This document shows, one piece after another, positions 47,699 through 60,464 of a DNA stretch of 64,000 nt. Numbering within the stretch: position 1 is the stretch's first letter; each line of letters opens with the position of its first letter. Position numbers and translations under genes: made by a program. Location: the NCBI GenBank assembly GCA_045117495.1, contig JBGUNT010000089.1, positions 75 through 64,074 on the forward strand, given 5' to 3'. This DNA is from Candidatus Limimorpha sp. Lineage in GTDB: Bacteria > Bacteroidota > Bacteroidia > Bacteroidales > F082. Under the pieces are notes generated by a model, which made no database searches, was not told the origin of the DNA, and worked only from the letters and a program-made list of their open reading frames with translations.

Positions 47699-48433
47699 TT
47701 ATTCAAACAACTTCTTGTTGTTCTCCAGCAGGCGCTGCAGCTGCTCCAGCTCCTTGTCCTTCAGCTTGATCTCGGGCACAAACTTTCGGAAGTTCTCCAG
47801 ACCATGCATGTCGGAGCCCACATAGTCGTACATGCCTTCCTTCAGCATGTCGTGCGACTTCTCGTAGGCCGGATCGCCATAGACGCCCGCCAACGAAAGC
47901 AGGTTAAGCTGGAACTTATAGTTCTTGTCCTTCCAACGCAGGTAGTTGGCCTTGTTGGCGTATTGATAGCGCTCAGGATGGGCGATGACGGGCTGATAGC
48001 CCTCACACATGATGTCGTACAACATCTCGGTGATGCCATGCTCATACATCAGATAAGACGTCTCGCACAACACGTGGGTGCCCGCCTTGTCCAAACACAA
48101 GAATCCTTGCTTGTAATGCTTCATGAACTCGGCATCGAGCATGTACTCGGCCGCCAGCCGCAGCTCTATCTTGCTCACCTTGGTGGCTTCGGCCTTGAAG
48201 TCTTCAAAAGCCTTCATGATGGTCTCCCGTTCGTTGTCGGGATATTCCTTCATGAAATGCGGTGTAAGAATCATCTTGGTCACTCCCTTCGCCTCGAGCG
48301 TCTTCAGAGCTTCGAGCGACTTGCCCGTCGAGCGGAAACCGTCGTCGACGCCAGGGAGCAGGTGACAATGCATGTCGCAGGCTCCTTGGAAGAAGCCTTC
48401 AGGCAGTTTATGTCGGAATGAGAATAGTGGCAT
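47699..48433 (-). CDS. PHP-family protein-tyrosine phosphatase (CpsB/YwqE-like)
   Basis: N-terminal metal motif DMHCHLLPGVDDG. Later HPER motif. Adjacent to the tyrosine autokinase gene. Confidence 0.85.
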   Translation of the reverse strand: MPLFSFRHKLPEGFFQGACDMHCHLLPGVDDGFRSTGKSLEALKTLEAKGVTKMILTPHFMKEYPDNERETIMKAFEDFKAEATKVSKIELRLAAEYMLDAEFMKHYKQGFLCLDKAGTHVLCETSYLMYEHGITEMLYDIMCEGYQPVIAHPERYQYANKANYLRWKDKNYKFQLNLLSLAGVYGDPAYEKSHDMLKEGMYDYVGSDMHGLENFRKFVPEIKLKDKELEQLQRLLENNKKLFE

Positions 48434-50922
48434 CAGTTCTTGTCTTCTTCAGTGGATTCGGACGATTTATGGTGCTTGTGGTGATGGCGTTTCTTGAACA
48501 GGCCTTTCTTCTCGTCCTTTCCTTCGTCAATGCCATATCCGTAGCCGTAACCATAACCGTAACCATAACCATAACCGTAACCATAGCCGTAACCATAGCC
48601 GTAATAGCCATAACCGCGTTTCTTCTTGTTGACGGAGTTGAGCACCAGGCAGAGGTTCGGGAACTTACCATCTTTGTAGAACTTATCCACGTCGAAGAGC
48701 AAGCGCTTGTCGGTCTTGCCGGCCCTCAGCACGAAGATGGTGGTGTCGGCCACGCGCTTCACGATGTCGGAGTCGGCCACCATGCCCACCGGCACGTTGT
48801 CGAGGAAGACATAGTCGTAACGCTTGCGCAGCTCAGCGACCATAGCATCCAGGCGGTTGCTCATGAGTAGCTCGGCGGGGTTGGGCGGCACGGGGCCTGA
48901 GAAGATGATGTCCATATTGGGCACCGTAGTGTCGGAATGGATGATATCATCGATACGATCGGTCTTGCCCGACAGGTAGTTCGACACGCCAGCGCGGGTG
49001 CCTACGCCGAAGACCTTGAACATGGTACCCTTTCGGATGTCCAAGTCGACGAGGACCACCTTACGCGAAGCCCATGCGAAGCTCGAAGCCAAGTTGGACG
49101 AGACAAAGGTCTTGCCCGACGACACCATGAAGGAGGTGAACATGACCACATGCGAGCCTTCCTTCTGGGCTTTCATATACTCGAGGTTGGAGCGGATCAG
49201 GCGGAACGACTCCGAAATGGAATCGCGGCCGTTCTCACGCACCACGATGGCATGGCCTTCCACACTCTTCTCATAAGGCACATCGCCCAAGAACGGCACC
49301 TTGGTAGCCTTTTCCACATCTGCCCTGTCGTGGACAGCGGTATCAAGCAGCCTGCGGAGCAGCATGATGGCGGCAGGGATGGCCAAACCGATCAAAATGC
49401 CCATCATAACGGACTTCTTCTCGTCGGGTGCCACCGGCCTGTTGTTGGGAGCAGCGTAGTCAATGACACGGGAAGCTGCTTCCAATTGAGGGCCTGTCAA
49501 AAGGAGCTCCTCACGTTTAGTCAGTAACTGCAGGTAAAGCTTCTCCTTGATGTTCTGCATACGTCCCACCTCGTTCAGTTCCAACTGGGCAGTAGGCACC
49601 GACTGGATCTGGGCATTGGCAATGCTACGCTCACGGTCGGCTGCATCGATACGGGTCTGCAAACCTTGCAGGTTGCTTTCCAACATAGCCAAAATCGACG
49701 AACGCAACGTCCTTTGTGATTCCTGCAGGTTAACTGCCACAGGATTGTTCATAGTTCCATCAGCCCTATATTCTTCCAGCGTGGTTTGATTGTCATTATA
49801 CTTCTTGATGATAGCAGCCGCTTCTCCACTAATACTCACAGCACCAATGGGAATCACCTGACCCTCATTATTTTCAATGAAGTTGATCAAAAACCGCACA
49901 TTACCCGCTTGGTCTCTTAATTTTTTTGCCTCTTCAGTAGAAGCCGCACTGCTGGCAACATAGGTCTGGCCAAAGGATTTGGTATCAATCAAATTATGCG
50001 AACGCTTGAAGTCTACAAATACTCTCTCATAATCCTGAATGTCGTTCATCAAGTAGGTAATACGGTCATTGATAAAAGCCTCAGAATAATCCAAGATCCT
50101 TTGTTGGTCATCAATGGACTCCTGGTTGTACACATCAATCAAGGTATTAAGAGCATCAGCTGCGCGCAAAGGCGAGGTATCTTGTAGTGAGAGTCTCAAA
50201 ATGGAGTTACGATCGTTATCCCTTCTCACGCCAATACGTCCACGATAAGAAGCCGCCACCGCTGAAAGCGGCTTACGACTCACAGTAATAGGCGTGTTGA
50301 TATAATCCTTATAGATCCAAGTAGGGGCAATCACCACGCGACCCTGGGGAATCATCACCGTATCGTTCAGCTTTACCTTCATGGAGGGCACATTGCCACC
50401 GACATCTTCCAGCATGACAAAACTGTTGTCGACAGGACGCACCGTAAAGGAAACACCAGCTTCTTCTTCCATACCAGGGAAGGCCACTTCAACCGGTGAG
50501 GTCTTATAAAGGTCCTTATTACGCTTGGCCACCTTCGTCTTGTATGAATACATGGTGTTCAGATTCAGCTGACGCACCATGTTTTCCATATTGGTCTGCG
50601 ACTTCAGCACCATCATCTCATTTTGAACAGAGCTAATGGCCACACCTTGCCCCGTGATGGCACTGATAGCCGTTGAACCTCGGGAATCCGAGCCGCCACT
50701 AGCCACCGTTTTGACCATAATGGAAGCCGAACTGGCATAAATCCTTTCCTGATTTCGAACCTTATAATAGGCATACATTCCACAAATAGCAGCACAGAGA
50801 ACAAACCAATGCAGATTGCGCAGCACCAAAAAGAGAAAGTCCTTAAACTTAAAACCGCTATTGTTATCCTCATCCAAAAATGAGGTGTTATTGGAATTGT
50901 TGTTAATCTGATTGTTATCCAT
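48433..50922 (-). CDS. polysaccharide co-polymerase / tyrosine autokinase (Wzc-like)
   Basis: Wzz-type periplasmic region flanked by two TM helices. Walker A SSGKTFVSSNLA, A' VLVDLDIRKG, Walker B YVFLDNVP. C-terminal Tyr cluster. Confidence 0.9.
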   Translation of the reverse strand: MDNNQINNNSNNTSFLDEDNNSGFKFKDFLFLVLRNLHWFVLCAAICGMYAYYKVRNQERIYASSASIMVKTVASGGSDSRGSTAISAITGQGVAISSVQNEMMVLKSQTNMENMVRQLNLNTMYSYKTKVAKRNKDLYKTSPVEVAFPGMEEEAGVSFTVRPVDNSFVMLEDVGGNVPSMKVKLNDTVMIPQGRVVIAPTWIYKDYINTPITVSRKPLSAVAASYRGRIGVRRDNDRNSILRLSLQDTSPLRAADALNTLIDVYNQESIDDQQRILDYSEAFINDRITYLMNDIQDYERVFVDFKRSHNLIDTKSFGQTYVASSAASTEEAKKLRDQAGNVRFLINFIENNEGQVIPIGAVSISGEAAAIIKKYNDNQTTLEEYRADGTMNNPVAVNLQESQRTLRSSILAMLESNLQGLQTRIDAADRERSIANAQIQSVPTAQLELNEVGRMQNIKEKLYLQLLTKREELLLTGPQLEAASRVIDYAAPNNRPVAPDEKKSVMMGILIGLAIPAAIMLLRRLLDTAVHDRADVEKATKVPFLGDVPYEKSVEGHAIVVRENGRDSISESFRLIRSNLEYMKAQKEGSHVVMFTSFMVSSGKTFVSSNLASSFAWASRKVVLVDLDIRKGTMFKVFGVGTRAGVSNYLSGKTDRIDDIIHSDTTVPNMDIIFSGPVPPNPAELLMSNRLDAMVAELRKRYDYVFLDNVPVGMVADSDIVKRVADTTIFVLRAGKTDKRLLFDVDKFYKDGKFPNLCLVLNSVNKKKRGYGYYGYGYGYGYGYGYGYGYGYGYGYGIDEGKDEKKGLFKKRHHHKHHKSSESTEEDKN
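48532..48616 (-). repeat. coding (Gly-Tyr)n dipeptide repeat, about 13 units, in the Wzc C-terminal tail
   Basis: Translation RGYGYYGYGYGYGYGYGYGYGYGYGYGYGID. Codons alternate between GGT/GGC and TAT/TAC. Confidence 0.9.
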
Positions 50923-54155: not shown

Positions 54156-54479
54156 CTAAAAAATCCGTTCCATCCTTTGCCACTTCTCGGTTGAACTCGC
54201 TCCGGCGGCGCAGCTCTGGAATTGCGAGACGTAGGCTTCCCACTCTGCTTGCCTTGGCAGCATGGCCAATCGGGCCATGTCGCGGTCGAAGTCGAAGTCG
54301 TCTACCGTGTCCATGATCATGAAGAGCTGGCGGCCGTGGCGGTAGATCTGCATGTCGAGGATGCCTACCTCGCGCTGACCAGCTATGACTTCGGGCCAGA
54401 CGTGGGAGTGGGCTTCGCAGTATTTCTCAATGAGATAGGGATCGTCAACGAGCGTTAGGGTTTGGCAATAACGTTTCAT
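54156..54479 (-). CDS. L-rhamnose/L-fucose mutarotase-family protein
   Basis: 107 aa. RhaM-family signature HSHVWPEV...MQIYRHGRQLFMIMDT. Directly downstream of fucP. Confidence 0.78.
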   Translation of the reverse strand: MKRYCQTLTLVDDPYLIEKYCEAHSHVWPEVIAGQREVGILDMQIYRHGRQLFMIMDTVDDFDFDRDMARLAMLPRQAEWEAYVSQFQSCAAGASSTEKWQRMERIF

Positions 54480-54568: not shown

Positions 54569-55864
54569 TCACATATTTTGATTCACCTTGCGGTGAATTG
54601 ATGAAGCACGAACACCATATATAGTGACGATAATGAAACACAACAAAGGCAGCGCATAACTGACATTCACGGCAGGATGTCCCATGACCGTGCCACAATC
54701 GATAATCATCCCTTGCAGCGGGGGCATGAGGGCGCCACCCACGATGGCCATCACGAGGAAAGCGGCTCCCAACGAAGCATCCTCGAGGCTCACATCCTCC
54801 AAGGCCGTGCCATAGATGGTGGGGAACATCAGGCTCATGAAAAAGCTGATGCCTATCAGGCAGTAAAGTCCCGCTTTACCTACAATCAAGATGGCTCCCA
54901 ACGTGCATAGCGCTGCACAAATCCCAAAGATGGTCAGCAGACGTCTGCCGTCGGTGTATTTCATCAGCCAAGTGGAGAGGAAACGCCCTACCAAGAACAG
55001 GCACATGGCAAGGATGTTATAGTTCTGCGCCGTGGCCTTGTCGATGCCCAAGTTATCGGCATAGTGGATGATGAAGGTCCATACCATAATCTGCGCCGCC
55101 ACATAAAACACTTGCGCGATCACACCTTCGCGATAGACTTTGTTGGTCCAAAGCCGTTTCATCGTACCCCTAGTGGCCATTGTCGCTTGTCCCTCGGCCT
55201 TTGGCACTTTGACCAGCGCGATGATCACGAACATCACGACCACTACAATGCCCAAGGCCACATACGGGTCGCGTATCACCGCCAAGTCGTGCAACCTGAT
55301 CTCAGCCTTCTCTGCCTCGCTCAGCATCGGAAACAGGATGTTGCCTGCGGCATCCCTCTTGTCGGAAAGCAAGTTGGGCAGCACAATCATGCTGGCCACG
55401 GCCATGCCTGCCAGCGAACCCATGGGGTTGAAGGCCTGTGAAAGGTTGAGCCGTCGTGTGGAATTCTCCTTCGGGCCTAATGAAAGGATGAAGGGATTGG
55501 CCGTCGTCTCAAGGAAAGCCAGGCCGAAGGTAAGGATATAGAGGCTGAAGCAGAAGAAGGTGAAGCTCTGACGAGCAGCAGCTGGGATGAATAGAAAGGC
55601 TCCGATGGCATAGAGCGCAAGTCCTAACAAGATGCCTTTCTTATAGCTGTAACGCCGGATGAACAGGGCTGCGGGCACCGCCATGGTGGCATAGCCGCCA
55701 TAGAAGGCGAACTGAATGAGCGACGCCTTGGCAGCGGGCAGTTCCATCAAGGTCTGGAACGCAGCCACCATTGGGTTGGTGATGTCGTTGGCGAAGCCCC
55801 ACAGCGCGAAGAGGGTTGTGATGGCGATGAAGGGCAGCAGGTACTTTTTCTCAACGAGCTTCAT
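54569..55864 (-). CDS. fucP: L-fucose:H+ symporter (MFS)
   Basis: N-terminal signature LFALWGFANDITNPMV. 12 TM segments. Confidence 0.88.
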   Translation of the reverse strand: MKLVEKKYLLPFIAITTLFALWGFANDITNPMVAAFQTLMELPAAKASLIQFAFYGGYATMAVPAALFIRRYSYKKGILLGLALYAIGAFLFIPAAARQSFTFFCFSLYILTFGLAFLETTANPFILSLGPKENSTRRLNLSQAFNPMGSLAGMAVASMIVLPNLLSDKRDAAGNILFPMLSEAEKAEIRLHDLAVIRDPYVALGIVVVVMFVIIALVKVPKAEGQATMATRGTMKRLWTNKVYREGVIAQVFYVAAQIMVWTFIIHYADNLGIDKATAQNYNILAMCLFLVGRFLSTWLMKYTDGRRLLTIFGICAALCTLGAILIVGKAGLYCLIGISFFMSLMFPTIYGTALEDVSLEDASLGAAFLVMAIVGGALMPPLQGMIIDCGTVMGHPAVNVSYALPLLCFIIVTIYGVRASSIHRKVNQNM

Positions 55865-55937
55865 TATATTAAAGTTGAGAGTTTAGAGTTTAGAGTTTAG
55901 AGTTGTGGAAAGTGTAGAGTGTAGAGTTATTGAGTAT
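55865..55937 (-). promoter_or_regulatory. G-free heptamer-repeat leader (CTCTNNA)n upstream of fucP
   Basis: 73 nt with no C on the plus strand. The minus strand reads ...CTCTACACTCTACAC...CCACAACTCTAAACTCTAAACTCTAAACTCTCAACTTTAATATA-ATG. It fills the whole spacer between the kinase stop and the fucP ATG. Confidence 0.7.
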
Positions 55938-57143
55938 CTAAGGGCGGCGGATAGTGAGTGGGATGGATTCGGGGTGGGTTTGGCAGAACGAATGTGCGTC
56001 TTTGACGACGCAGGCAAGATAGCCGCCTCCGCCGGCGCCGGGCATTTTCCAAGCTAGGACATCGGGGATAGCGGAATAGCGTTTGATGAAGTCTTCAATC
56101 GTAGGAGATTGCGGGTCTTCGCCCGCAATGACACCATGGGGGTGAACCATTCCAGGAAACATGGAAGTCTGGGCATTAAACGAAGCTTTGTAGGCCTTAG
56201 CAAAGGCGTCCAAGTCCTTATGCATGATGGCTTGCCAGCAGTCGTCGGCAGCTTGGGCCAAGGCCTTCACTTTCGGCTCGGTGATGTCTTTGCCTTCCAC
56301 CACGGAACAGCCCGGTTGGCGTGGCTCCATGGGAATCATGACGAGATGCTGCTCGAGCCAACTCAAAATGTCTTCGTCTTGACAAGTCTCAATCTTGATG
56401 GGCCAATAGAGTTTGTCGTAATAGTGTCGCACCAGCCCCGGCATGCAGATGCCAATGCTGTCCTGTGCCCCACTGATGATGCCGTCGCTACGCTCCGGAT
56501 CGTTCTCGAAACAGAAGACGAGCTTGGCGAGGGTCTCAGGGTCCATGTCGGGCAGTCGCATCGGCCATATCCTTTTGATCATGTTGCGTGTCGAGGTGGA
56601 GAGGCCGCAGCGCTCGCGCACCTCGAAAGTGGGCTCCAGCGAGATAGTGATGGCCCATCCTGGGGCGAAGCAGGAGACGTAGGGCTGGTCGATCCATGTG
56701 CCGGCGAGGTCCAAGCGGGTGGGAATCTGGCAGAGGTCCTGTTTCAGCGCGGTGGAAGAACGGGCTTCCAACCCTTTGGAGGGGGTGCGTTGCAGCACAA
56801 TGTATTGGATGCCTCGCTCCTCGCAAAACTTACGTTTCGCTTCGGAGGCACCGTCCTCGTTGACCACAAAGATATCAGGCTTCACCCGATCGACAGTGCC
56901 GATGAAATCCATCACGCCGTCGCCATCGTTGATGAAGGCGTCTTTCACGTAGCGGATGGCCTTCACCATGAAGAGGCGCTCCTTTTCGGGATAGAGCGTC
57001 TTATGGTTTTTGTAGTGCAGGATGGTCTCGTCGGAGCCAATGCCCACATAGAGGTCGCCATACTGCGCCGCCTGGCGGAAGAACTCGACGTGGCCGCTGT
57101 GGAGGAGGTCGTAACAACCGCTGACGAAAACCTTCGGTTTCAT
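55938..57143 (-). CDS. fusion of a cytidylyltransferase-fold nucleotidyltransferase and a GHMP-family sugar kinase
   Basis: N-terminal VFVSGCYDLLHSGHVEFF (HxGH). C-terminal GHMP motif II-like CGLSTST and motif III MPGAGGGGY. Start moved to MKPKV. Confidence 0.7.
   Translation of the reverse strand: MKPKVFVSGCYDLLHSGHVEFFRQAAQYGDLYVGIGSDETILHYKNHKTLYPEKERLFMVKAIRYVKDAFINDGDGVMDFIGTVDRVKPDIFVVNEDGASEAKRKFCEERGIQYIVLQRTPSKGLEARSSTALKQDLCQIPTRLDLAGTWIDQPYVSCFAPGWAITISLEPTFEVRERCGLSTSTRNMIKRIWPMRLPDMDPETLAKLVFCFENDPERSDGIISGAQDSIGICMPGLVRHYYDKLYWPIKIETCQDEDILSWLEQHLVMIPMEPRQPGCSVVEGKDITEPKVKALAQAADDCWQAIMHKDLDAFAKAYKASFNAQTSMFPGMVHPHGVIAGEDPQSPTIEDFIKRYSAIPDVLAWKMPGAGGGGYLACVVKDAHSFCQTHPESIPLTIRRP
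56105..56132. repeat. family-B hairpin (GAGATTGCGGGTCTTCGCCCGCAATGAC) lying in frame inside the kinase CDS
   Basis: Nearly identical to the intergenic hairpin at 57708-57738. Translated as GVIAGEDPQSP. Confidence 0.75.
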
Positions 57144-57216
57144 TAGTGTAGAGTTTAGAGTTGTGGTTTGTTGAGAGTTCAAAGTTTAGAGTTGTGGTTT
57201 GTTGAGAGTGTATAGT
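57144..57216 (-). promoter_or_regulatory. G-poor heptamer-repeat leader upstream of the kinase gene
   Basis: One C in 73 nt on the plus strand. A 27-nt perfect direct repeat AGTTTAGAGTTGTGGTTTGTTGAGAGT occurs at 57152-57178 and 57183-57209. Confidence 0.7.
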
Positions 57217-57699
57217 TTAAGAGTTGTTAGTGTCATTTGGTTTGTAGGAGTTGAGGAGGCCTGAGAGAAGACGAGCGTCTTCTTGCCCTTCCTTATAAGG
57301 CACTCTATGGGCCGTACCGCGGCCCTCATCGCGGGCTTGACCCGCGATCTCCGCGATTTCCCCTTTCTCTTCATACGCCTCTTTCACCCCCCGCATATAA
57401 TCAGCATCAACTCCAATGGCTTCAGCCAAATCTTTCCAATCAGGATTAAAGCCATTGATCAAGTCCTCTTTCCACTCTCTACGCCACTTCTTCAGTTGTT
57501 TCTCTCTATGTATTCCAACATCCAAGCGATCATACTCTTCATAATACACAAGTTTTTCAGTATTATACCTGTCAGAGAACCCTTGATTGATGTGTAACTT
57601 ATGTTCTGCAACTCTCCTTTTTAGGTTCCTTGTGACTCCTGTGTAAAGAGTGGTGTTGTACTTGTTGGTTAATATGTAAACGATTCCTTTTGGGCCCAT
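57217..57699 (-). CDS. GIY-YIG nuclease-family protein, copy 1 (C-terminally extended)
   Basis: GIVYILTN...LYTGVT..L..R..EH GIY-YIG core. About three quarters identical by eye to copy 2 over roughly 110 aa. The ORF then reads through the flanking hairpin (EIAGQARDEG). Confidence 0.8.
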   Translation of the reverse strand: MGPKGIVYILTNKYNTTLYTGVTRNLKRRVAEHKLHINQGFSDRYNTEKLVYYEEYDRLDVGIHREKQLKKWRREWKEDLINGFNPDWKDLAEAIGVDADYMRGVKEAYEEKGEIAEIAGQARDEGRGTAHRVPYKEGQEDARLLSGLLNSYKPNDTNNS

Positions 57700-57851: not shown

Positions 57852-58793
57852 TTATCGCTCCGCGCGCATAGGGTTATTCAAAAAGTCATCATACGCCAAG
57901 CGGATGCCGTCCTCCAAGTCGGTCTTGTAGGTCCAGCCGAGGGCAGTGGCCTTGCTCACATCCAACAGCTTGCGAGGTGTGCCGTTGGGGCGGGTGGTGT
58001 CCCACTTGATGTTGCCTTCGTAGCCAATAACCTTGGCGACCAGTTCGGTGAGTGCCTTGATGGTCAGCTCCTTCCCTGTCCCAGCGTTGACGGTCTCGTT
58101 GCCGCTGTAGTTGTTCATCAGGAAAACGCAGAGGTTGGCGAGGTCGTCGACATATAGGAACTCGCGCAGCGGCGAGCCGTCGCCCCAGCAGATTACCTCC
58201 TTCAGCCCGTTGACCTTGGCTTCGTGGAAGCGGCGGATCAACGCGGGCAGCACATGGCTATGCTCAGGATGGTAGTTATCGTTGGGGCCATACAGGTTAG
58301 TCGGCATCACGCTGATGTAGTCGGTGCCATACTGGCGGTTGAGGAACTCACAATACTTCAGGCCGCTGATCTTCGCCAAGGCATAGGCTTCGTTGGTCTT
58401 CTCAAGCTCGCCTGTGAGCAGGCATGACTCCTTCATAGGCTGTGGCGCCATACGGGGATAGATACAACTGCTGCCGAGGAACTCCAGCTTCTTGCAGCCG
58501 TTCTTCCAAGCCGCATGGATGACGTTCATCTCGAGGATCATGTTGTCGTACATGAAGTCGGCCAGGGCGTTCTGGTTGGCGATGATGCCGCCGACTTTGG
58601 CCGCGGCGAGGAAGACGTATTCGGGCTTTTCGGCTTCGAAGAAGGCCTCCACCTGGTCCTGACGCGTCAAGTCCAGTTCTTTATGCGTCCTGGTGATGAT
58701 GTTGGAATAGCCTTGTCGTTGCAATTCACGGACGATGGCCGAGCCCACCATCCCACGGTGACCAGCAACGTATATTTTGCTGTTTTTGTTCAT
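57852..58793 (-). CDS. fcl: GDP-L-fucose synthase
   Basis: Rossmann motif KIYVAGHRGMVGSAI. Catalytic YxxxK (YALAK). Start moved to MNKNSK. Confidence 0.93.
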   Translation of the reverse strand: MNKNSKIYVAGHRGMVGSAIVRELQRQGYSNIITRTHKELDLTRQDQVEAFFEAEKPEYVFLAAAKVGGIIANQNALADFMYDNMILEMNVIHAAWKNGCKKLEFLGSSCIYPRMAPQPMKESCLLTGELEKTNEAYALAKISGLKYCEFLNRQYGTDYISVMPTNLYGPNDNYHPEHSHVLPALIRRFHEAKVNGLKEVICWGDGSPLREFLYVDDLANLCVFLMNNYSGNETVNAGTGKELTIKALTELVAKVIGYEGNIKWDTTRPNGTPRKLLDVSKATALGWTYKTDLEDGIRLAYDDFLNNPMRAER

Positions 58794-58847
58794 TGTTTTT
58801 GTATTTGCTTCTAATACTGCGCTATCGGACAAACCCAAAACGGGAGA

Positions 58848-59301
58848 CCCTCATGGCGGACAAGGATCCGCCATCTCTCACGCTTAGGGTGGCTCTGGAT
58901 CATAATATCCATTTTCATACGCATCTTTTACAGACTGCATATATTCCTCATTCAATCCTATCGAATCCGACAAGTCTTCCCATGTAGGATTGAATTCGCT
59001 TATCAACTTCTCTTTCCATTCCCTACGCCATTTCTTCAGCTGTTTTTCTCTGTGGATACCATCAACGAGAAGATCATAGACTTCATAATACACCAGTTTC
59101 TCTGTGTTGTATCGTTCAGAGAAGCCATTATTAATATGGAGCTTATGCTCGGCCATCCTACGTATGAGGTTTCTGGTCACTCCTGTATAAAGGGTTGTGT
59201 TGTTTTTATTTGTGAGGATGTAGACAATTCCTTGGAGAGGCATAGGAGCGAGTGTGTCGTTTCGTGTCAGAGATCGCGGGTCTGACGCCCGCGATGAGGG
59301 G
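58848..59301 (-). mobile_element. GIY-YIG cassette 2 bounded by inverted hairpins
   Basis: Left end CCCTCATGGCGGACAAGGATCCGCCATCTCTC (58848-58879). Right end GAGATCGCGGGTCTGACGCCCGCGATGAGGGG (59270-59301). Same CCCTCAT...ATGAGGGG termini as cassette 1. Confidence 0.5.
58884..59243 (-). CDS. GIY-YIG nuclease-family protein, copy 2
   Basis: 119 aa with GIVYILTNKNNTTLYTGVTRNLIRRMAEHK. Confidence 0.85.
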   Translation of the reverse strand: MPLQGIVYILTNKNNTTLYTGVTRNLIRRMAEHKLHINNGFSERYNTEKLVYYEVYDLLVDGIHREKQLKKWRREWKEKLISEFNPTWEDLSDSIGLNEEYMQSVKDAYENGYYDPEPP

Positions 59302-59384: not shown

Positions 59385-60464
59385 CTAATCCTCCATGTGT
59401 GTCTTCAAATACAACTTCTTCACAAACCTCATATCATGCTCGACCATGATCCTGACGAGGTCTTCGAAGGATGTCTTGCGGGGGTTCCAGCCGAGGAGTG
59501 TCTTGGCCTTGGTGGGGTCGCCGAGCAGCTGCTCCACCTCTGCCGGGCGGAAGAAGCGTGGGTCGACCTCGACCAGGCTCTTGCCCGTAGCGATGTCGAT
59601 GCCTCTCTCGTCGACGCCTTCGCCTTCCCAGCGTAGGGTAATGCCCACGTGCTTGAAAGCCAAGGTGCAGAACTCGCGGACGGTGTGGTACTCACCCGTG
59701 GCGATAACGAAGTCTTCAGGCTTCTCCTGCTGCAGGATGAGCCACATGCACTCCACGTAGTCCTTGGCATAGCCCCAGTCGCGGAGGGCATTGAGGTTAC
59801 CGAGATAGAGCTTGTCCTGATAGCCTTGCTTGATGCGTGCCGCCGCTAGGGTAATCTTGCGGGTGACGAAGGTCTCGCCGCGGCGTTCGCTCTCATGGTT
59901 GAAGAGGATGCCGTTGACGGCGAACATGCCATAGCTCTCGCGGTAGTTCTTCACAATCCAGAAGCCGTACTGCTTGGCCACACCATAGGGCGAGCGTGGA
60001 TAGAAGGGTGTGGTCTCCTTCTGTGGCACCTCTTGCACGAGGCCAAAGAGCTCGGATGTGGAGGCTTGGTATATCCTGCATTTCTTCTCCAGCCCGAGGA
60101 TGCGCACGGCTTCGAGAAGGCGCAGTGTGCCGACGGCGTCGGCTTCGGCGGTGTACTCGGGGCAGTCGAACGACACCTTGACATGGCTCTGGGCGGCCAG
60201 GTTATAGATTTCGTCGGGTTGTATCTTTTGGATGATGCGAACGAGCGACGACGAGTCGGTCATGTCGCCGTAGTGCAGGGTGAGCAGGCGCTTGTTCTTC
60301 ATGTCGCGCACCCATTCATCGAGGTAGAGGTGTTCGATGCGACCTGTGTTGAACGACGACGAGCGACGGATGATGCCGTGCACCTCGTAGCCTTTTTCCA
60401 AAAGGAACTCGGCAAGGAATGAGCCATCTTGGCCCGTGATGCCGGTGATTAATGCGGTTTTCAT
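59385..60464 (-). CDS. gmd: GDP-mannose 4,6-dehydratase
   Basis: [27 protein letters not shown]. Catalytic YGVAK. Highly conserved throughout. Confidence 0.96.

Follow-up and report, generated by a model that had tools for sequence, protein, structure and literature searches.

In a 64,000-nucleotide stretch of Candidatus Limimorpha sp. DNA (contig JBGUNT010000089.1), referred to below as the window, one minus-strand gene encodes a compact fusion enzyme that we take to be a bifunctional L-fucose 1-kinase and L-fucose-1-phosphate nucleotidyltransferase for fucose salvage, a reading to which we give a probability of about 60%. An HxGH nucleotidyltransferase domain (residues 2-137) is followed in this protein by a shortened GHMP kinase domain (residues 139-401). 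We infer both enzyme activities, the sugar and the nucleotide from the observed domain folds, active-site conservation, gene context and distribution; on gene-context grounds only, the nucleotide is most probably guanosine diphosphate (GDP). The functional proposal as such is not new, having been made in a 2026 paper for Amuc_1591 of Akkermansia, a protein of the same architecture. The gene and its two domains are laid out as follows.

55938..57143, minus strand: target gene, a compact fusion enzyme of 401 amino acids, stop codon included (open reading frame list and translation)
56733..57143, minus strand: HxGH cytidylyltransferase-fold domain, residues 1-137 (PF01467)
55941..56729, minus strand: shortened GHMP-kinase (fucokinase-like) domain, residues 139-401 (fold and profile matches)

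An earlier note, made from the letters of this DNA alone, had placed a 401-residue gene at these positions, and the open reading frame and its translation agree with it. Translation from the ATG gives this length, and an alternative in-frame TTG at 57182, 13 codons upstream, would extend the protein to 414 amino acids. The ATG is the likely start, because homologues in the family alignment begin 2-4 residues ahead of the KVFVSGC motif. Structural comparisons were made with an AlphaFold2 model built on an alignment of 43 diverse family members, which reached a predicted local distance difference test score (pLDDT) of 92.3 and a predicted template modelling score (pTM) of 0.82. It was used in place of a single-sequence model, whose pLDDT of 41.8 made it unusable.

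The N-terminal domain is recognised by the Pfam model PF01467 (CTP_transf_like) above its gathering score (residues 7-133, 58.1 bits, cut-off 21) and carries the HxGH motif as H15-S-G-H18. Its model adopts the Rossmann-like fold of TagD (1coz; Z 18.3, root-mean-square deviation (rmsd) 1.8 Å over 125 of the 126 TagD residues) and further matches HldC, the Fom1 CyTase, ECT and CCT, which upholds the cytidylyltransferase fold assigned to this half in the earlier note. Conservation was followed in a set of 121 sequences drawn from different species, with identities of 42-88%. Residues G9, D12, H15, G17, H18, K45 and R56 are invariant throughout this set, and R128 is kept in 118 of the 121, within an R128-S-S-T131 stretch that is conserved with minor substitutions. 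The RTEGISTT signature of the fold is non-contiguous in the family (R119-T...R128-S-S-T131), with a family-wide insertion of five residues relative to TagD.

The C-terminal domain has the two-lobed GHMP fold over residues 139-401. Its top structural match is the heptokinase WcbL (4usk; Z 23.4, rmsd 4.1 Å, 250 residues); the fucokinase domain of Fkp (9iip) superposes with Z 21.3 and rmsd 3.0 Å over 231 residues at 21% identity, 1s4e with Z 19.9, and galactokinases and mevalonate kinases with Z 17-20. A profile of the C-domain family run against the PDB retrieved Fkp at the top (4.7e-17), then HddA (6.7e-11) and WcbL (3e-8). General models see less of this domain. Neither GHMP_kinases_N nor GHMP_kinases_C of Pfam matches the target protein at E <= 0.01, and NCBIfam recognises no GHMP domain in its last ~260 residues, where its only hit covers 25 residues at the end of the Fkp model; PF08544 of Pfam is reached by the C-domains of some relatives. 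As a whole protein, the target scores 22.4 bits against the Fkp model NF009948 (cut-off 721), with the match confined to residues 360-384, and phmmer against the PDB matches Fkp solely around PGAGGGGY. This is motif III, MPGAGGGGY at residues 367-375, in which P368-GAGGGGY375 is identical to the PGAGGGGY of Fkp. The GHMP kinase that the earlier note had read from this motif is thus borne out by the match to Fkp and by the fold (Z 21-23), though not by a Pfam GHMP model.

These comparisons also bear on a heptose-nucleotide pathway of the HddA/HldC type, the alternative raised in the earlier note, which we regard as very improbable. WcbL is indeed first among the structural matches, and among specific NCBIfam models the N-domain matches RfaE domain II best, but the 50.5 bits fall far under the cut-off of 181.5. 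In the sequence profile, Fkp is 6-9 orders of magnitude ahead of HddA and WcbL. A Trp that stacks on fucose is shared by Fkp and the target family, and HddA and WcbL have Gly at its position. The fucose permease and the mutarotase encoded next to the gene (some relatives even carry a mutarotase and the enzyme as one fusion protein) act on free sugars and not on heptose 7-phosphate.

The structure of Fkp with beta-L-fucose-1-phosphate places R592 and D762 at O1, with D762 as general base, and shows W599 stacking on C4-C5-C6 of fucose, its replacement by Ala dropping kcat/Km more than 3000-fold; D601, T602, G759 and Q761 bind sugar hydroxyls, and E751, the 712-720 loop and A900 are likewise involved in the active site (PMC11982464). 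The corresponding positions in the target are R143, W150, D152, Q153, G225, Q227, D228, E213, G180-T185 and A370, with D228 aligning with D762. The counterparts of R592, W599, D601, G759, Q761, D762, E751 and A900 are identical in the two proteins, and the differences are the exchange of T602 for Q153 and an altered phosphate loop. Six of the seven fucose contacts (R592, W599, D601, T602, G759, Q761 and D762) are therefore the same. Across the 121 sequences, R143, W150, D152, Q153, S184, R186, Q227 and D228 are invariant, E213 is kept in 118, and the motif III glycines (G369-G374) in 119-121. Judged by this conservation, both domains look catalytically maintained.

Two features of the kinase domain are unusual. 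Motif II reads G180-L-S-T-S-T-R186 and not the canonical PxGSGLGSS; S184 and T185 correspond to S719 and S720 of Fkp, and R186 is the invariant residue already mentioned. From motif I to motif II, each of the 118 family sequences in which the motifs were located has 37 residues, versus 123 in Fkp, and the remaining motif spacings of the family and of Fkp are within four residues of each other. A segment of 86 residues is gone throughout the target family, and it contains D644, M645, P666 and I669, the adenine contacts of ATP as modelled for Fkp (PMC11982464). Stand-alone short kinase domains of ~240 amino acids begin exactly at the domain boundary, and the existence of such copies makes the short domain an autonomous unit.

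Such a truncation raises the question of whether the protein has a single catalytic domain, the GHMP part merely binding fucose or fucose-1-phosphate, or sensing, while phosphorylation takes place elsewhere. The lost segment forms the adenine pocket in the model of Fkp, motif II is off consensus, the Pfam GHMP models miss the domain in the target, and the paper on the Akkermansia protein calls the C-domain substrate-binding (PMC13313206). We nevertheless find a dead kinase improbable, given that the 121 species show little or no variation at D228, R143 and E213, in the S184/T185 loop for metal and phosphate, and in motif III, that the assembly holds no other fucokinase candidate that we could find, and that the stand-alone copies argue for a self-sufficient unit.

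The bifunctional kinase and nucleotidyltransferase that we propose can be compared with several known systems. Fkp of Bacteroides fragilis (949 amino acids; PDB 5yys, 9iip, 9iit) is a bifunctional L-fucokinase and L-fucose-1-phosphate guanylyltransferase with its pyrophosphorylase N-terminal and its fucokinase C-terminal (PMC11982464). The target has the same transferase-then-kinase order, a homologous kinase domain and presumably the same two-step salvage; the earlier note was mistaken in describing the order as opposite to that of Fkp, and right in describing the nucleotidyltransferase fold as different. The transferase of the target is an HxGH domain of 137 residues, unrelated in fold to the ~500-residue NTP-transferase and beta-helix of Fkp, and the protein lacks the three-helix linker and totals 401 residues versus 949. 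HldE/RfaE likewise joins a sugar kinase to a sugar-1-phosphate nucleotidyltransferase of the HxGH fold, but its kinase is N-terminal and of the PfkB fold, with a heptose phosphate as substrate and ADP-heptose as product, and it is to HldE that the domain order of the target, with its C-terminal GHMP kinase, is opposite. HddA and WcbL (PDB 3k85 and 4usk) match the C-domain structurally with Z 18-23 and have the QD catalytic motif and motif III in common with it. Unlike the target, they are stand-alone enzymes with Gly for the sugar-stacking Trp, a full N-terminal subdomain, the canonical GSGLGSS and a phosphorylated heptose as substrate.

The system closest in proposed function comes from Akkermansia muciniphila, in which D-arabinose-resistant mutants were all altered in Amuc_1591, and growth was rescued by L-fucose or mucin (Lakey et al., Gut Microbes 2026; PMC13313206). 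The authors described an N-terminal adenylyl/cytidylyltransferase and a C-terminal sugar-kinase-like domain superposing on 9IIP, took the latter to be substrate-binding, and proposed a "fucose-nucleotidyltransferase" on genetic evidence, with V176 and G326 as the two mutated positions reported (PMC13313206). Compared by the description in that paper alone, Amuc_1591 and the target have the same two-domain architecture and the same proposed function. The neighbour of Amuc_1591 is murJ, and not fucP, gmd or fcl as in the target. None of the family proteins that we compared has the V176 and G326 pair, and no Akkermansia locus is among the 80 closest loci. In the literature on Fkp, Prevotella, copri and fucose salvage, we found no treatment of the family beyond the Akkermansia paper.

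The surroundings of the gene point to fucose. Its neighbours in the window are the following.

59385..60464, minus strand: gmd, GDP-mannose 4,6-dehydratase of the de novo route (TIGR01472, 582 bits)
58884..59243, minus strand: GIY-YIG nuclease gene, between gmd and fcl
57852..58838, minus strand: fcl, GDP-L-fucose synthase of the de novo route (NF047922, 481 bits; PF01370)
57217..57699, minus strand: GIY-YIG nuclease gene, between fcl and the target, outside the pathway (PF01541, 53 bits)
54569..55864, minus strand: fucP, L-fucose:H+ symporter, 73 bp downstream of the target (TIGR00885 equivalog, 533 bits, cut-off 280)
54156..54479, minus strand: RhaM-family 6-deoxy-L-hexose mutarotase (PF05336, 101 bits)

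The genes gmd, fcl, target, fucP and mutarotase are all co-directional, so that family matches and strand agree with the position between fcl/gmd and fucP plus mutarotase described in the earlier note, which left the two GIY-YIG genes unmentioned. These two are paralogous and break up the gmd/fcl/target operon. In a relative of the same genus (G225, L004), 279 bp separate gmd from the enzyme gene downstream of it, too short a gap to house a GIY-YIG gene. Genes for a polysaccharide deacetylase, an acetyltransferase, Wza and Wzc follow beyond the mutarotase.

The host assembly (2.47 Mb, 85.7% complete) contains three GH29 fucosidases, and the only fucP that scores above cut-off in it is the one next to the target. 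Searches of this incomplete assembly with the Fkp model and for the fucose isomerase fucI returned no match, and no other fucokinase candidate was found in it. The canonical fkp, whose presence in the genome the earlier note had left to be checked, was thus not found in what was assembled. With neither Fkp nor fucI found, the compact enzyme is the sole visible fate of imported fucose in the assembly as it stands. A search for GT11 fucosyltransferases was uninformative, as no control genome gave a match.

Gene context was then compared across relatives. The 80 closest loci, retrieved with a 10-sequence alignment as query, come from different species at 59-88% identity and are all labelled Bacteroidota except for two unclassified bins and one short contig binned as Subdoligranulum; they include Segatella copri, Prevotella, Alloprevotella, Muribaculaceae and Alistipes. 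In 48 of the 80, fucP and/or rhaM occur within 6 kb, with the strand shared in nearly all cases; gmd, fcl or manC are found in 29 and at least one of the five genes in 55, all counts being lower bounds since several contigs end early. In an order-wide sample of 40 loci, import genes are present in 12, GDP-sugar genes in 20 and either kind in 27. Roughly two thirds of loci in both sets therefore keep a link to fucose or GDP-sugar genes, and the linkage of homologues, another point on which the earlier note had made its idea depend, speaks for fucose. The order of the genes shifts from locus to locus (FUS-fucP-rhaM, fucP-FUS, rhaM-fucP-FUS and others, FUS being the fusion gene) while the association stays, a pattern that favours functional coupling over synteny by descent. 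Loci devoid of fucose genes have mixed neighbours (ManC, capsule and unrelated genes), and no other conserved partner was found among them.

The association goes as far as fusion. In three genomes, a RhaM mutarotase is fused N-terminal to both domains in proteins of 566-606 amino acids, and two of the three adjoin fucP. A mutarotase joined to the enzyme makes sense only where the anomer matters, which suggests that the substrate is a free reducing sugar. Since mutarotases act on free sugars, these fusions fit an anomeric kinase and argue against heptose-phosphate pathways. Separately, a group of further fusions (P0135, P0216, P0151, P0133) comprises Gmd with a short kinase (601 amino acids), GT2 with a short kinase (667), a PNP_UDP_1 phosphorylase with cytidylyltransferase and kinase (655) and two cytidylyltransferases with a kinase (539), some of which could be assembly or gene-calling artefacts.

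The physiological sugar might still be another one taken by permeases of the FucP type and by Fkp-like kinases, such as L-galactose, D-arabinose or another 6-deoxy-L-hexose, in place of L-fucose. The mutarotase is of the rhamnose-mutarotase family, T602 of Fkp is Q153 in the target, and D-arabinose appears to be accepted in Akkermansia (PMC13313206). In more distant clades of the family, W150 is replaced by Phe together with the replacement of Q227 by a hydrophobic residue; these joint swaps suggest that specificity varies within the family and fit a role of positions 150 and 227 in setting it. For the target itself we hold another sugar to be unlikely, in view of the high-scoring fucP equivalog and gmd/fcl among its neighbours and of the six identical fucose contacts, including the Trp stacking on C4-C5-C6. 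The rescue of the Akkermansia phenotype by L-fucose points the same way (PMC13313206).

The distribution of the compact enzyme does not overlap with that of Fkp in the genomes sampled. Among 301 sampled Bacteroidales genomes, 39 carry the main-clade compact enzyme, 26 carry Fkp and none carries both; one Fkp-bearing genome has a single member of a paralogous class that is more divergent. In three GTDB families (f16, f40 and f71), Fkp is present in some genomes and the compact enzyme in others. Chance would give about 3.4 overlaps and 0 were seen, an uncorrected probability of ~0.03 that ignores relatedness. A separate class of 450-530-residue open reading frames, in ~15 of the 301 genomes, matches only over its first 180-270 residues (32-38% identity, E ~1e-29; for example G071:C8:12027-12791 and G009:C22:10620-11402) and represents a related transferase domain with a different fusion partner.

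Several observations weigh against the salvage function that we propose. As read here, motif II (GLSTSTR) departs from the canonical GSGLGSS P-loop, and the 86-residue deletion would remove the modelled adenine pocket of Fkp and leave ATP binding unexplained; with that segment missing and motif II altered, the mode of ATP binding is not readable from homology. The five-residue insertion apparent in the RTEGISTT signature likewise makes the nucleoside triphosphate (NTP) taken by the transferase unreadable from homology. To our knowledge, characterised HxGH-fold nucleotidyltransferases take cytidine triphosphate (CTP) or ATP and none takes guanosine triphosphate (GTP), so that GDP-fucose would be a first for this fold. 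The host assembly is only 85.7% complete, and the zero overlap with Fkp, with its uncorrected chance of ~0.03 and phylogeny ignored, counts as supporting evidence only. About one third of relatives have no fucose or GDP-sugar genes within 6-7 kb. More distant members (33-43% identity) have other glycan genes as neighbours, such as those for glycosyltransferases and sulfotransferases, or sit on phage-like contigs, so that the fucose link belongs to the Bacteroidales clade of the target.

Some of these distant members deserve a description of their own. At L124 4086-7653, one homologue (34% identical) sits in a sulfated-glycan cluster with CysNC, a PAPS reductase-like protein, two sulfotransferases, an ABC-2 exporter and GT2, and directly downstream of it lies a stand-alone 169-residue cytidylyltransferase-like gene. 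Phage-like contigs carry full-length distant homologues as well as a stand-alone 241-residue short kinase (L128 6001-7170; L131 1361-2452; L133 4001-4726). Their neighbours are Thy1, a UvsX-like recombinase, a DnaB helicase, a DNA methylase and many small open reading frames, and some of the homologues stand beside glycosyltransferases. The presence of homologues on such contigs hints at phage-encoded sugar activation.

The nucleotide is the part of the proposal on which the domain fold and the gene context diverge. The same two steps could yield CDP-, ADP- or UDP-L-fucose (the cytidine, adenosine and uridine diphosphate forms) from CTP, ATP or UTP, for dedicated glycosyltransferases; we know of no such activated fucose in nature. 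Such a product is possible, although we lean away from it. The nearest characterised relatives of the N-domain take CTP (TagD, ECT, CCT, Fom1) or ATP (HldC/RfaE domain II, PPAT), and HldC, the only sugar-1-phosphate precedent in the fold, yields an ADP-sugar. The repeated linkage to manC, gmd and fcl, which are GDP-sugar enzymes, and the lack of co-occurrence with Fkp, which makes GDP-fucose, count against it, as does the use of GDP-fucose by characterised fucosyltransferases. The family-specific insertion in the RTEGISTT loop could also reshape the base pocket. A kinase devoid of the usual adenine pocket, coupled to a transferase from a CTP- or ATP-using fold, leaves room for an unprecedented working mode: tentatively, the protein may make a fucose nucleotide other than GDP-fucose, or its transferase domain may help to form the nucleotide site of the kinase, with a composite cleft and coupled reactions.

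Under the salvage function that we prefer, free L-fucose, possibly released from glycans by the GH29 fucosidases of the host, would be imported by FucP, and the RhaM-type mutarotase would provide the beta anomer. Phosphorylation of O1 with ATP would follow in the C-domain, where D228 would be the general base, the phosphates would be bound by R143 and the S184/T185 loop, and the sugar would be held by W150, D152 and Q227. The HxGH domain would make NDP-L-fucose from an NTP and beta-L-fucose-1-phosphate, with GDP-L-fucose as the likeliest form. This product may enter the same pool as that of the gmd/fcl route and supply the downstream capsule genes. The compact, Fkp-independent route sketched in the earlier note is in this respect supported by the active sites, the context in 120 relatives, the mutarotase fusions, the failure to find Fkp and the non-overlap with it, and it is less new than that note suggested (PMC13313206).

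A few further features of the locus were recorded. A heptamer repeat (GAGTTTA, ~4 copies at 55877-55904) lies inside the 73-bp spacer between the target and fucP. In all four RNA runs, a depth spike at 55812-56025 comes from loose-ended unrelated contigs on this repeat and is not a gene signal. Contigs from RNA libraries tile the locus in four studies; they derive from relatives 90-95% identical, DNA carry-over is possible, and as assembled contigs they cannot prove transcription or operon structure. The Wzc-type tyrosine kinase (48433-50922, minus strand) ends in a long, perfect (GY)n tail of over 15 repeats, an unusually regular tyrosine cluster, with a stretch rich in His and Lys behind it.

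Gut Bacteroides are known to gain fitness by building salvaged fucose into their surface glycans, an ability credited to Fkp. If the function proposed here is true, a single protein of 401 amino acids would offer a route to activated fucose that is useful for chemoenzymatic synthesis. The compact enzyme is common among Bacteroidales of gut and rumen, and its carriers among the 301 genomes include Segatella copri, Prevotella, Alloprevotella, Muribaculaceae and many rumen lineages. Should the enzyme be a functional equivalent of Fkp, fucose from host and diet would be recycled into capsules far more widely than the annotation of Fkp implies.

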